Shown here: positions 32,423 to 40,743 of the stretch, one piece after another | How the letters are laid out: every line of letters begins with the position of its first letter | Position numbering within the stretch: the stretch's first letter is position 1 | Source of the DNA: a phage | Strand: one strand, 5' to 3' | Sequence record: PZ534514.1 | DNA: 51,676 bases | The notes under the pieces: model-generated | Told to the model about the DNA's origin: nothing | What the model saw: only the letters and a program-made list of their open reading frames with translations | Database searches by the model: none | Translations under genes and position numbers: made by a program

Positions 32423-32962
32423 TCATTTCAATTCCTCCACGCCATGCGATTGGATATGATTATGTGGCTTGTCGTATTCCGTGACCTGATAGGTTGTGAT
32501 TCCCAGGCTGCGGAAGTGCTTAACCACGTTCGGAGAATCATCAAAAGCACACACTATGTTTTCCAGTCCGATAGCGCGCAAGACTTCTTCTTTGATGATT
32601 GTGTCTTTGCGGTTGTCTTCCTTGCGGCGCATGATTAACGCATCGTACTTGATGCCGTTTTCGTTAAGCCATTTGCAGGTGTCCTCCATTACTTCATCGC
32701 TGCGTCCGGTAAGGATAACGATGGCAAATCCAGACATCCACAAACCGTTAACCACTGCAACCGTGCTCTTAATCGGCGAATCGCCAACAGCCGCCTTATT
32801 GAACTCAGACCAGCTTTCTGTAAGGTGCAAATCTTCTGTAGGAAGCAGGTGCAAGCGATGCGTTCCGTCTGATAACGTTCCGTCCAGGTCAACGATAACA
32901 ATCGGCTTGGAAGTGGAAAAATGGTATTTGCTGCTCCAAAGTTCAAATTCGTATTTTTTCAT
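32423..32962 (-). CDS. HAD-family phosphatase, T4 Pnk 3'-phosphatase-domain-like
   Basis: ATG at 32962; DxDGT motif IVIVDLDGTLSD, ILTGR and RKDTIIKEEV...AFDDSPNVV blocks parallel the T4 Pnk phosphatase domain. Confidence 0.7.
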   Translation of the reverse strand: MKKYEFELWSSKYHFSTSKPIVIVDLDGTLSDGTHRLHLLPTEDLHLTESWSEFNKAAVGDSPIKSTVAVVNGLWMSGFAIVILTGRSDEVMEDTCKWLNENGIKYDALIMRRKEDNRKDTIIKEEVLRAIGLENIVCAFDDSPNVVKHFRSLGITTYQVTEYDKPHNHIQSHGVEELK

Positions 32963-32973
32963 TATCAAACCTA

Positions 32974-33195
32974 TCAATTAAAATGAATTTGCTTGTATTC
33001 GATTTCATCTGCCAGATCATTTAACTTATCCGCCAGCTTGCGCACCTGGTCAATGGTGAGTATCGACCTAAAATCCGGCCTGCGCCCACCTTCAAACGTG
33101 ACATCAATAAACACACGGTCGCCGAACTTGTATACCTCAAGCGCATCGCCATGATTATCAATAAACTTGTGTTTAACGCGCTTATTTGTCTCCAT
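32974..33195 (-). CDS. Hypothetical protein
   Basis: 73-aa ORF. Confidence 0.5.
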   Translation of the reverse strand: METNKRVKHKFIDNHGDALEVYKFGDRVFIDVTFEGGRRPDFRSILTIDQVRKLADKLNDLADEIEYKQIHFN

Positions 33196-34930: not shown

Positions 34931-35185
34931 AATATCTGTTGTGACTTGTTGGTGCATTACGTTTTTGCCGCTCCGGTATGTGCTATCCGTTGCGCCATTA
35001 CAATTGGTGTAATAGATTGCTCGACCGTTGTCATAGAATCGGTACGCGGTGCATCCATCAACAGTAAACAGGCGACCGACTTTAAAATCTGACTCCACGC
35101 CTACGACTACCGTTGATTCAGATGCCTTTTCGCATCCGGTCAGGGTAGCAATTGCAATCAAAACTCCAATTAATGCCTTATTCAT
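34925..35185 (-). CDS. Small lipoprotein (second lipoprotein gene)
   Basis: Signal peptide with lipobox LTGC; 86 aa; second gene of the leftward early operon. Confidence 0.7.
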   Translation of the reverse strand: MNKALIGVLIAIATLTGCEKASESTVVVGVESDFKVGRLFTVDGCTAYRFYDNGRAIYYTNCNGATDSTYRSGKNVMHQQVTTDIK

Positions 35186-35655
35186 TATTCATCCCCCACC
35201 TTTACCATCTCGTTGAGCATTTCATTCATTCGCTCAAGTGCGATTGCCGCACCCTCCAGGCGCTCACCTTCCAGATCACTGATTCGCGGCTGTGTTTTCA
35301 GTAGTTGAGCAATAAACTTTGCTCGCCACTTGATTTCAAGTTTCGCTATATCATCCCCAGTCAGAACGCGAGGTTTGCTTTTGGCTTCAGTGAGCGCAAA
35401 CACAAAGCCATCACCCTCATCAGTCACCTTTCGCTTAATGCTGATCACGCCTTTTTGCTTCACTTCAGGTACGCGGTTGACAACCTGGCGCATGTACGAT
35501 GCCGTAATTGCTTCGCCGTTCTCCACATTAGCGCACAAAAAAAGCGCTGGCATGAATACATTATTACGCTCACCACTACCAATTGCCGCGCCCAGGTCGC
35601 GAAGCATATCGCAGAACTCACTACGCGACATAGAACTAACATTTTCTTCATTCAT
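35185..35655 (-). CDS. Hypothetical early protein (first gene of leftward early operon)
   Basis: 156 aa, RBS aaggag, next to the divergent control region. Confidence 0.65.
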   Translation of the reverse strand: MNEENVSSMSRSEFCDMLRDLGAAIGSGERNNVFMPALFLCANVENGEAITASYMRQVVNRVPEVKQKGVISIKRKVTDEGDGFVFALTEAKSKPRVLTGDDIAKLEIKWRAKFIAQLLKTQPRISDLEGERLEGAAIALERMNEMLNEMVKVGDE

Positions 35656-36308: not shown

Positions 36309-36354
36309 AAATAGCACTTTTTGTTAAAACTGAATTGTCCTGATCGGGTACATT
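36309..36354 (+). promoter_or_regulatory. Promoter-like element, conserved motif family
   Basis: aaatagcactttttgttaaaac, 22 bp, tacatt, leader acatcgaaacga, RBS aggag, ATG at 36393. Confidence 0.55.
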
Positions 36355-36392
36355 AGACACATCGAAACGAGATACCCATCAGGAGAAAGCAA

Positions 36393-37181: not shown

Positions 37182-37448
37182 ATGGCGCGAATCAATGCAC
37201 CTATTCCAGTTAAGCGCAAAGCACGTTTGCTCAATAACGGGTGTTACGCCATGCGGCCTGCATTTAAGGATCGCACATTTCCGGTTATCGTTAACGTGTC
37301 TCACGTAAGCCGTAGCGGTGATCTGGTATTTGTTAAAGGTGAGGATCTGTCGGCGCTTGGATTCTATGGCGGTATTTACGGTGAGGCGCTTGGATTCTGG
37401 ATTAAAGATCCGTTAACTGGCGAGCGCGAAATCGAACTCCTGGACTAA
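37182..37448 (+). CDS. Hypothetical protein
   Basis: 88-aa ORF, RBS gaggag. Confidence 0.6.
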   Translation: MARINAPIPVKRKARLLNNGCYAMRPAFKDRTFPVIVNVSHVSRSGDLVFVKGEDLSALGFYGGIYGEALGFWIKDPLTGEREIELLD

Positions 37449-37492
37449 ATAGCACTTTTTGTTAAAACTCAATCCTCGCAATCCGATATATT
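37447..37492 (+). promoter_or_regulatory. Promoter-like element, conserved motif family
   Basis: aaatagcactttttgttaaaac, 22 bp, tatatt; palindrome cctcgca/tgcgagg spans the -10; leader catcgacaacgaa. Confidence 0.55.
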
Positions 37493-37525
37493 ACACACAT
37501 CGACAACGAATGCGAGGATTTGAAA

Positions 37526-37678: not shown

Positions 37679-37949
37679 GTTTTGCAGCTATACCGATACT
37701 GTGGATTTTGATGGGATACAATTGCCCCTCCCGAACAACTACAGGTACATAACTCGTGACCGTTTCGGCTTTATCCAGGGGTGGCGGAACAAACCAACAC
37801 ACACTGAGTTCGGTATGTCTGGAGGAGAAGAGTTGCCGATCACTTTTGGGCATCAAAGCGGTGAAAATCTTCCGGTTGTTGCGCGTAAGTATCGCAGACG
37901 CAAGATCGCAAGAGCACTTATCTCTTTAACTGGATCTGTTGTTGAATAG
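37668..37949 (+). CDS. Hypothetical protein
   Basis: ATG at 37668 with RBS ggag; ORF-track start at 37608 lacks an RBS. Confidence 0.5.
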   Translation: MSSKFCSYTDTVDFDGIQLPLPNNYRYITRDRFGFIQGWRNKPTHTEFGMSGGEELPITFGHQSGENLPVVARKYRRRKIARALISLTGSVVE

Positions 37950-37989
37950 CACTTTTTGTTAAAACCGATGCGCCTCTGATTGGTATATT
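37944..37989 (+). promoter_or_regulatory. Promoter-like element, conserved motif family
   Basis: gaatagcactttttgttaaaac, 22 bp, tatatt; palindrome gatgcgc/gcgcatc; leader catcgacaacgaa. Confidence 0.55.
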
Positions 37990-38020
37990 ATGCGCATCGA
38001 CAACGAACGAGGATTTAAAA

Positions 38021-38944: not shown

Positions 38945-39058
38945 ATGATGAAATTTCTTGATATTTTATTTGGTGTGATGATTGGCATTGTTGGTCTTTT
39001 AGTTGTCACTGCTGGTATTGCTATTATTCTGATTGTTATCAAGGAGTTTATGAAATGA
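38945..39058 (+). CDS. Small hydrophobic peptide (37 aa, single transmembrane helix)
   Basis: ATG at 38945 with RBS aaaggtga; stop overlaps the next start (ATGA). Confidence 0.4.
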   Translation: MMKFLDILFGVMIGIVGLLVVTAGIAIILIVIKEFMK

Positions 39059-39279
39059 GCCAGGACGGATTTTTTGAGCGACTGCAAAAAGCGGAAGATG
39101 CTGGGCTGAATAAAGAGGCCGCTCTTGAAGTTGCATATAAGATCAGAACGCTTGATGATGCGCTTGGTGAAATGGATATGGATCATGAATGCGGCGCTGC
39201 ATTTGCAGATCCAACTATGATTGTTAATGATTGTGGTTGCAATTTTGATCCGAACTGTCCTAGATGCTTTCCGTTTTGA
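39055..39279 (+). CDS. Hypothetical protein, Cys-rich C-terminus
   Basis: 74 aa; HECG...CGCNFDPNCPRC. Confidence 0.55.
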   Translation: MSQDGFFERLQKAEDAGLNKEAALEVAYKIRTLDDALGEMDMDHECGAAFADPTMIVNDCGCNFDPNCPRCFPF

Positions 39280-39288
39280 GGTGATGAA

Positions 39289-39999
39289 ATGTATAAAGGT
39301 TTAATATTCTCTTTGTTTGATGGATCTGGTAAGGCCGTTAAAGATTGGGCTGATGCTGGATATAAATGCATTTGCTTTAATGCTGACGGTGGCGATCACG
39401 GTGATTACCAGTCAGTGCGCATAATCCATGACAATATCTTTTACGTTAACGTGTGGATTGATGATCTATTCAAATATACCGCAAAACTTGAAAATTGGGG
39501 TAAGCCTGATTTTATTATGGCGTTCCCTCCATGCACTGACCTTGCAAATAGCGGATCTCGCCATTGGGCTAAAAAACGCATTGAGAATCCATCGTTCCAG
39601 GATGAAGCCGCCAACACTTGCAAAATAGCGGCGCAAATTGCTGATTATTTCGGTGTTCCGTACATGATAGAGAATCCTGTAGGCAAGCTGTCAACGCTAT
39701 GGCGCAAGCCTGATTATACGTTCCATCCGTGCGATTATGCTGGCTATCTGCCGGAAGATGATAAACATCCCGACTTTCCTGATATTATTCCGGCGCGGGA
39801 TCGGTACTTTAAGAAAACATGCCTTTGGACTGGAAACGGATTTGTTATTCCTCCGCGCGCAACAATCATTCCTAAAGATGGCGACAAGGATAATCCAGGT
39901 TGGGCCAAAACTGGCGGAAAATCATCTCGCACAAAGATGATCCGCTCCCTCACTCCGCGCGGTTTTGCTCGCGCAGTCTTTGAAGCAAACGCAAAATAG
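39289..39999 (+). CDS. Putative DNA cytosine-C5 methyltransferase-like protein (tentative)
   Basis: Motif I-like FSLFDGSG, PC-motif-like AFPPCTDLANSG, ENV-like MIENPVG; RBS gaggtga; only 236 aa. Confidence 0.5.
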   Translation: MYKGLIFSLFDGSGKAVKDWADAGYKCICFNADGGDHGDYQSVRIIHDNIFYVNVWIDDLFKYTAKLENWGKPDFIMAFPPCTDLANSGSRHWAKKRIENPSFQDEAANTCKIAAQIADYFGVPYMIENPVGKLSTLWRKPDYTFHPCDYAGYLPEDDKHPDFPDIIPARDRYFKKTCLWTGNGFVIPPRATIIPKDGDKDNPGWAKTGGKSSRTKMIRSLTPRGFARAVFEANAK

Positions 40000-40039
40000 C
40001 ACTTTTTGTTAAAAGCCAGGTGTAAAAGCCTGGCATAAT
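39993..40039 (+). promoter_or_regulatory. Promoter-like element, conserved motif family
   Basis: aaaatagcactttttgttaaaag, hairpin gccagg/cctggc in spacer, cataat. Confidence 0.55.
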
Positions 40040-40070
40040 CACTTCACCGAAACGAAAGGAGAAATAAACG

Positions 40071-40457
40071 ATGAAAGTTATCTGCAATAAAACCAACGTT
40101 TTGATGAACGGTCGTTATAAAGCTGTATACGAAAAAATCGCTGGTAGCGATGATGTGATCGAGTTGGAACAATTCCAGGTAAAGAGCATTACAAAGGGTA
40201 GTAAGTGGCAAAACGCTGTTGAGTCTGACTATCGTCATATCAAGACAAAAACAATTAAATGCACCTTTGTAGATCACAAGATCCCGTGTAAAAAGCATTT
40301 CAAAGAAGGGAAGCGTTACCAGATTGAGCAAGGTCGCGCGCTTGGCGCTGTTGCTGGTTATGTGTTTGATGAGGCTGGCGACCGCTGGACGCTATACCGC
40401 GAAGAGGTTGGATTTTCCGCTGGTGGCTGTCATTTGTTTGAGGCTATGTATAAGTGA
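40071..40457 (+). CDS. Hypothetical protein
   Basis: 128-aa ORF, RBS aaggag. Confidence 0.6.
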   Translation: MKVICNKTNVLMNGRYKAVYEKIAGSDDVIELEQFQVKSITKGSKWQNAVESDYRHIKTKTIKCTFVDHKIPCKKHFKEGKRYQIEQGRALGAVAGYVFDEAGDRWTLYREEVGFSAGGCHLFEAMYK

Positions 40458-40675
40458 TCAAGGCTGAATATCGCTATAAGGTGACTCATTCAGCAACAAA
40501 AACCTTCAATCCTGGCGATATAGTCAGGCCAATAAAGAAAACAATGGTTGGGTGGCTGATTGGATTATCATATCACAAATCACTTTACTTTGATTTTGTT
40601 GATTCCGTAACCGCGCATTGCTATAGCGCAAGGGAACCAGAAAAAATCTTAGTTAGCATAGAGCGGATCAAATAG
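40454..40675 (+). CDS. Hypothetical protein
   Basis: 73-aa ORF with ATGA overlap. Confidence 0.5.
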   Translation: MIKAEYRYKVTHSATKTFNPGDIVRPIKKTMVGWLIGLSYHKSLYFDFVDSVTAHCYSAREPEKILVSIERIK

Positions 40676-40715
40676 CATTTTTTGTTAAATGCGGGTAGCA
40701 TTGGTGCGGTATTAT
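40670..40715 (+). promoter_or_regulatory. Promoter-like element, conserved motif family
   Basis: aaatagcattttttgttaaat, 22 bp, tattat, with palindrome tgcggtattattgccgca over the -10. Confidence 0.5.
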
Positions 40716-40743
40716 TGCCGCATCAAAAAAGGAGTTATCATCA

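Follow-up and report, generated by a model that had tools for sequence, protein, structure and literature searches.

A stretch of phage DNA of 51,676 nucleotides (PZ534514.1; the whole of it is referred to here as the window) carries on its + strand a gene of 711 bp that very probably encodes an active SAM-dependent DNA cytosine-C5 methyltransferase, a member of the phage-specific, minimal PHROG 757 family, with CCWGG as its most likely target and the activation of retron Ec86 as the predicted cost of carrying it. A near-identical orthologue of this dcm-like gene has already been characterised experimentally, and in sister phages with public genomes the gene has been annotated before; the observation is therefore right but not new. 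What remains of interest in the gene is its minimal architecture and its recognition sequence, and it is mainly of use as a marker, as phages that carry it are predicted to be restricted by retron Ec86/Eco1 and to escape by loss of the gene. As E. coli B strains, BL21 among them, naturally carry Ec86/Eco1, this bears on the choice of propagation host and on the interpretation of host range.

The dcm-like gene and its surroundings

The original prediction placed a 236-aa protein in the + strand early cluster, and the open reading frame is there as described at 39289-39999, with an ATG start and a TAG stop. It is not a chance reading frame, since homologues are found in 1,502 phage records (tblastn) and an exhaustive profile search assigns 2,017 clusters at 50% identity to the family; nearly all of these are 210-260 aa in length and the small size is therefore a family trait and not a truncation. 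Enzymes of PHROG 757 that are called "Dcm-like" occur in Drexlerviridae and in several other coliphage groups.

The DNA between 38500 and 41000 is 92-96% identical to that of Hanrivervirus phages (Drexlerviridae), among them herni, egaa, pSf-1, JakobBernoulli and KarlJaspers, and in Hanrivervirus records the gene is variously labelled "putative site specific DNA methylase", "DNA-cytosine methylase", "Dcm-like C5 cytosine methyltransferase" or "hypothetical protein". The window protein shares 225 of its 236 residues (95%) with KarlJaspers Bas06_0055 in a gap-free alignment, none of the 11 substitutions falling within a conserved motif, and it is 93% identical to the product of the JakobBernoulli gene. 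That a second methyltransferase, of the C5-cytosine type, stands alongside a Dam enzyme is supported by this 95% identity to an annotated Dcm-like gene that is the orthologue of K42 Dcm, and the Dam enzyme that had been predicted on the minus strand is itself confirmed at 46048-46749 by three profile matches. Counterparts of both enzymes are listed for JakobBernoulli in its curated BASEL annotation, at the syntenic positions and under the names "Dam-like N6-adenine methyltransferase" and "Dcm-like C5 cytosine methyltransferase"; the pairing of Dam with a C5 methyltransferase was therefore already public. The features of this region are as follows:

39055..39279, +, upstream ORF of 74 aa in the same early operon; a syntenic hypothetical gene is present in KarlJaspers and JakobBernoulli
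39278..39283, +, Shine-Dalgarno GAGGTG of the dcm-like gene, overlapping the TGA of the upstream ORF (39277-39279)
39289..39999, +, dcm-like gene, orthologous to KarlJaspers Bas06_0055 and K42 Dcm; its 236-aa product is very probably a C5-cytosine DNA methyltransferase of minimal type
39994..40050, +, copy of a repeat element (family D1) overlapping the dcm-like TAG, with the 22-nt box AAATAGCACTTTTTGTTAAAAG, the hairpin GCCAGG-TGTAAAA-GCCTGGC and CATAAT
36309-36365, 37447-37503, 37944-38000, 39994-40050 and 40670-40726, +, repeat copies within the small-gene cluster
45788-45809 and 46808-46829, -, repeat copies in inverse orientation flanking the Dam gene
46048..46749, -, Dam-type N6-adenine DNA methyltransferase of 233 aa with WLNPPYSN (PF05869 at 1.6e-60, TIGR01712 (phage_N6A_met) at 9.7e-55, phrog_111 at 1.8e-83)

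As the Shine-Dalgarno sequence overlaps the TGA stop of the 74-aa ORF, translation of the dcm-like gene is probably coupled to that of the ORF upstream. The order of genes, small ORFs followed by dcm, two small ORFs and a helicase gene, is common to the window, KarlJaspers and JakobBernoulli, and the dcm-like gene would be expressed within the + strand small-gene cluster upstream of the helicase gene, coupled to the ORF that precedes it.

The hairpin at the end of the gene holds two CCWGG sites, and the 91-nt intergenic stretch that follows the gene is 99% identical across the window, KarlJaspers and JakobBernoulli, which is above the conservation of the coding sequence. The 22-nt box AAATAGCACTTTTTGTTAAAAC is present in seven intergenic copies, each of them oriented with the surrounding genes, and a TAtATT-like hexamer lies ~20 nt past the box, often together with an inverted repeat. 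A simple sigma-70 scan did not call the sites of the repeat element, which resembles a promoter, an operator or an RNA-processing signal specific to the phage. Elsewhere in the window a protein with a VRR-NUC nuclease domain (PF08774, 1.8e-9) is encoded directly upstream of Dam at 46824-47276 (-), a polynucleotide-kinase-type HAD phosphatase (PF25109, 1.6e-22) at 32423-32977 (-) and a DUF7174 protein (2.3e-45) at 35185-35655 (-).

Family assignment, fold and conserved residues

The original prediction had named the PF00145 profile as the means of checking the C5-methyltransferase assignment, and this check fails: the protein scores 11 bits where the gathering threshold is 22 (E 0.29), and the alignment covers motifs I-IV only. 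The same is true of the family at large, as a PF00145 match at E<=1 is seen for just 5 of 68 relatives, the best of them at 0.0039. NCBIfam gave no match for the dcm-like protein. When PDB sequences were searched with phmmer and two family profiles, the best hit was DNMT3B at E 0.1, obtained with a profile of 39 relatives, and the more diverse 68-member profile found no methyltransferase among them. The support for a methyltransferase lies instead in the fold, the invariant catalytic residues, PHROG 757 and the literature.

Within the PHROG collection the protein matches phrog_757 ("DNA methyltransferase") at 5.9e-85 over residues 2-235. A profile-profile alignment (hhalign) of the 68-member family against a canonical set brings motifs I, IV and VI into register, with a local probability of 94.6% and an E of 6.5e-8; the canonical set was made up of M.HhaI (327/327 against 10mh), E. 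coli Dcm taken from the K-12 genome, and M.HaeIII and DNMT3A, the last two as provisional sequences. Structural comparison of the model of the protein has DNMT1, M.HhaI (11.4) and M.HaeIII (11.2) among the matches listed, a Foldseek search is in agreement, with DNMT3A/B at E ~6e-8, and in a viral structure library the best matches were phage "DNA-cytosine methylase" entries. The modelled protein has the catalytic-domain fold of C5-cytosine DNA methyltransferases.

Several relatives carry the same small domain joined to other domains. In one protein of 563 aa (P0250) the C5-methyltransferase-like domain is fused to a D12 N6-adenine DNA methyltransferase (PF02086, 2.5e-48), and in another of 348 aa (P0262) it is fused to an HNH endonuclease (PF13391); these two natural fusions place the domain in the biology of DNA methylation and restriction. 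Helicase fusions of 1,100-1,400 aa are found in BFVD. Three further relatives of 401-453 aa (P0243, P0246 and P0263) have long N-terminal extensions of low complexity, rich in Ala, Pro, Ser and Glu and with no Pfam domain, that look eukaryotic or giant-virus-like and not phage-like.

The segments of the window protein that resemble canonical motifs, all on the + strand, are these:

39316..39330, +, motif I-like SAM-binding loop F10-D-G-S-G14, aligning with HhaI "FAGLGG" and DNMT3 "FDGIATG"
39523..39534, +, motif IV-like F79-P-P-C82 with the putative catalytic cysteine, aligning with HhaI "GFPCQ"; C82 is mutated in the inactive K42 Dcm-mut
39670..39678, +, motif VI-like E128-N-P130 (a variant of ENV), aligning with HhaI "MENV"; E128 is mutated in K42 Dcm-mut
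39811..39816, +, K175-K176, proposed to bind substrate, in a motif VIII-like region directly before strand 177-182; both are mutated in K42 Dcm-mut
39943..39972, +, C-terminal segment R219-S-L-T-P-R-G-F-A-R228, similar to motif IX, with 8 residues left before the end of the protein

Conservation was followed across 68 family representatives that are 32-55% identical to the window protein. Both C82 and E128 are invariant in 68/68, as are Y173 and W180, and at least 90% conservation is seen for F79, P80, T83, N129, P130, D171, K175, R219, P223 and G225. The F10-D-G-S-G14 loop is invariant in 39 close relatives and has the wider-family consensus SLFDxTG; outside the Drexlerviridae clade this SAM loop is degenerate, with SLYDHST, LFNSSD, LFNHTP or ICNLTD in place of FDGSG, and the catalytic Cys and Glu are still invariant there.

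The C-terminal part of the protein is harder to align. The segment R170-D-R-Y-F-K-K176 is conserved and stands before strand 177-182, its pairing by hhalign with canonical motif VIII (QxRxR) has no confidence, and the BLASTP pairing of R219-R228 with "RRLTPRECAR" of Dcm, at E 3.3, is not significant. An hhalign comparison of the C-terminal profile alone with the canonical alignment gave no significant alignment, and across global, local and C-terminus-only runs motifs VIII, IX and X were not statistically placed. The remark in the original prediction that there is no obvious target-recognition domain is a fair one, as the motif VIII-like strand is separated from the C-terminal helices by just ~36 residues (183-218), the part of the protein where model confidence is lowest (block means 71-87). 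In M.HhaI the corresponding interval is ~100 residues. Judged from its sequence, motif X is likewise not recognisable: the window protein has no GN(S/A)V, all 68 relatives end ~10 residues past the motif IX-like segment, and the sole pairing of the motif X type is an insignificant alternative alignment of "GGKS" with "FGNSV" (hhalign). Candidates for residues that stand in for motif X or touch the bases are an insert with the invariant H37, G38, Y40 and H47, or the "GGKS" segment (209-212). The 128-aa ORF downstream (40071-40457), which has a "QNAV", was considered as a motif X subunit acting in trans in the style of a split methylase and was rejected, as it has no Pfam match and K42 Dcm is active alone.

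Retron Ec86, the product and the target

Phage K42 is a KarlJaspers strain, and it is in this phage that the orthologue was studied. Among K42 mutants that escape retron Ec86 (10.1101/2023.08.16.553469; published as Wang et al., Cell Rep 2024;43:114857), 4/4 were altered either in the 711-bp dcm or at a single base lying 9 bp ahead of the start of that gene. Expression of K42 Dcm was toxic only with the retron present, and msDNA from cells expressing it was high in 5mC by LC-MS; with the C82A/E128A/K175A/K176A mutant there was no such rise in 5mC and the triggering of the retron was also lost (10.1101/2023.08.16.553469). Later papers take it as established that retron Eco1/Ec86 is triggered by phage Dcm.

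All four of the mutated residues, C82, E128, K175 and K176, are present in the window protein with the same numbering as in K42 Dcm. The base at -9 of the dcm-like start is a G at 39280, within the Shine-Dalgarno sequence, and this would fit the K42 escaper mutation if that mutation was described on the opposite strand. By analogy with the ~95% identical K42 Dcm, the window enzyme is predicted to form 5mC and to trigger Ec86, and the window phage is likewise predicted to be sensitive to Ec86 and to escape by losing either the dcm-like gene or its ribosome-binding site. A further lead, drawn from the report that T5-like phages lack 5mC and set against Ec86-sensitive Demerecviridae that are said to encode Dcm (10.1101/2023.08.16.553469), was dropped as no T5-sized genome was among the sampled tblastn matches.

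From the invariant residues and the fold, covalent catalysis by way of C82 and E128 would proceed as in M.HhaI: Cys82 (motif IV) would attack C6 of a flipped-out cytosine, Glu128 (motif VI) would protonate N3, and the methyl group of SAM would move to C5. Replicating phage DNA would then be fully resistant to EcoRII-type cutters of CCWGG whatever the Dcm activity of the host, and phage Dam would presumably do likewise at GATC. The same activity would methylate the stem-loop of the Ec86/Eco1 msDNA and so switch on the abortive-infection system. The original prediction suggested that two methyltransferases would broaden protection from restriction, and this is plausible as a hypothesis. The BASEL study, for its part, could not tie such methyltransferase genes to restriction resistance in any simple way, and the only consequence that has been demonstrated, for the orthologue, is the opposite of protection, the phage being betrayed to retron Ec86.

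The frequencies of recognition sites across the whole window, with expectations from a maximal-order Markov model, are in keeping with the dcm-like enzyme and Dam together probably shielding GATC and CCWGG sites. Neither CCWGG (observed/expected 1.05) nor GATC (0.98) is avoided, and GCGC and TTAA are also at their expected frequency. Depletion is seen for CCSGG (0.18; 2 observed against ~13.5 expected), GGWCC (0.49), GGCC (0.50), CTAG (0.46) and AGCT (0.65), RCCGGY is absent where ~20 would be expected, and 23 of the 64 six-bp palindromes are missing altogether, among them the EcoRI, PstI, EcoRV and SmaI sites. This is the pattern expected if GATC and CCWGG are protected by methylation, although the Dam and Dcm of the host could give the same one, and the non-avoidance of CCWGG fits with CCWGG specificity and is no proof of it.

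The target of the window enzyme is most likely CCWGG, as for host Dcm. For K42 Dcm this specificity was carried over by analogy from E. coli Dcm, with support only from msDNA point mutants that lose defence, and the retron authors read their mutational data as recognition of CCWGG (10.1101/2023.08.16.553469). Papers on T1-like phages, on the diversity of E. coli phages and on BF23 gave no specificity or methylome data for the dcm-like family.

The msDNA itself is an unusual substrate. The Ec86 msd matches at 100% in 48 E. coli B genomes, and in BLR(DE3) (L004 2501-2571) it sits between the genes for the retron RT and the effector. When folded, the msDNA stem has a free energy of -22.5 kcal/mol (z -7), and within it CCTGG pairs with 5'-CAAGG-3'; there is a G.A mismatch, and the second strand lacks a target cytosine. 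The retron experiments were carried out in MG1655, which is dcm+, and msDNA from control cells was low in 5mC (10.1101/2023.08.16.553469). So little 5mC in msDNA from a dcm+ host implies that the phage enzyme does something, on msDNA at least, that host Dcm does not, and the mismatched, non-canonical nature of this "Dcm site" may be the reason why the phage enzyme and not host Dcm triggers Ec86.

Such considerations give some room to a different reading of specificity, that the enzyme makes 5mC from SAM at a target other than CCWGG, which could be shorter, relaxed or tolerant of structure (accepting, for example, a mismatch or a hairpin, or with methylation of the outer cytosine), and thereby protects against different or wider sets of nucleases. 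In its favour are the failure of both BLASTP (E 2) and hhalign (probability 1.5%) to relate the protein to E. coli Dcm, the short interval (~36 residues) that follows the motif VIII-like strand, a reported substrate in which CCTGG stands on one strand only and includes a G.A mismatch, and the poor methylation of msDNA when a dcm+ host lacks the phage enzyme. In the msDNA point mutants, defence could equally have been lost through broken contacts with the effector. Set against it is the specific sparing of CCWGG in a sequence where CCSGG and other C-containing palindromes are strongly avoided, whereas an enzyme of low specificity should relax avoidance more generally, and the retron authors' own reading of their mutants as CCWGG recognition. 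We regard this alternative as unlikely, and it is the only one with real weight. A stronger form of it, in which the family is a truly minimal C5-methyltransferase, without a canonical motif X helix and with ~36 recognition residues, that acts in a relaxed or structure-tolerant manner on a one-strand mismatched hairpin CCTGG and not on duplex CCWGG as host Dcm does, seems to us doubtful. Were it true, this would be an unusual architecture and the actual basis on which Ec86 tells phage methylation from that of the host.

It was also suggested originally that the short protein could be a different DNA-modification enzyme, and for this there is no support. Its most concrete form would be a C5-methyltransferase fold that installs another group, for example in the manner of CmoX, which would use Cx-SAM of the host to make 5-carboxymethylcytosine or a further hypermodification. 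CmoX (PDB 8yf3) has 333 aa in its solved chain and Arg350 at the motif X position, and it is mostly encoded together with CmoA and often with CmoY too (PMC12783734). In the window ten unassigned or larger ORFs hold no Pfam domain of the CmoA or ligase-like kind, the JakobBernoulli annotation has no such gene either, and the product of the orthologue is 5mC, which makes a CmoX-like activity very improbable. As regards the CmoX signature, SPPC together with an Arg at the position of HhaI N304 (motif X), the window protein has FPPC and an R224 that is invariant among close relatives, and hhalign did not place the motif X position.

A degenerate, inactive methyltransferase-like protein that acts by binding, either to DNA or to factors of the host, and might in this way block methylation or restriction by the host, would agree with the sub-threshold profile scores, the lack of a recognisable motif X, the minimal recognition region and motif I glycines that are not invariant outside the Drexlerviridae clade, but it is hardly credible given that the catalytic Cys and Glu are invariant in 68 relatives at 32-55% identity, which implies selection on catalysis, and that in the orthologue mutation of the catalytic residues put an end to 5mC formation as well as to activation of the retron.

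Comparison with known systems

The reading that we prefer, an active C5-cytosine methyltransferase of the minimal phage family, places the window gene closest to K42 Dcm and Bas06_0055. It shares with them the gene length of 711 bp, the residues C82, E128, K175 and K176 and the position upstream of a helicase gene, and with K42 Dcm it also has in common the ribosome-binding region to which escape mutations map.

The likeness to other C5 methyltransferases is more distant. The catalytic domains of DNMT3A and DNMT3B, which are among the structural matches, are only 12-18% identical to the window protein. In DNMT3 enzymes, which are ~285 residues long and form tetramers with DNMT3L to recognise CpG, there is a motif X (GRSWSVPV), whereas the window protein is 236 residues long and stops directly behind the motif IX-like segment. 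It also differs from M.HhaI and M.HaeIII, the PF00145 enzymes, in missing both their ~100-residue recognition domain and their GN(S/A)V motif X.

With E. coli Dcm and M.EcoRII the window enzyme would share, by way of the K42 orthologue, the 5mC product and the presumed target. The proteins themselves are dissimilar, Dcm being 472 aa in length as against 236 aa, with no significant similarity between the two (best BLASTP E 2.0, hhalign 1.5%), and "Dcm-like" is therefore a functional label and not a statement of orthology. E. coli Dcm possesses motifs IX and X as well as a complete target-recognition domain, and its repair partner is Vsr, the very-short-patch repair endonuclease. In E. coli K-12 vsr overlaps dcm, and no Vsr was found among the larger ORFs of the window or in the JakobBernoulli annotation.
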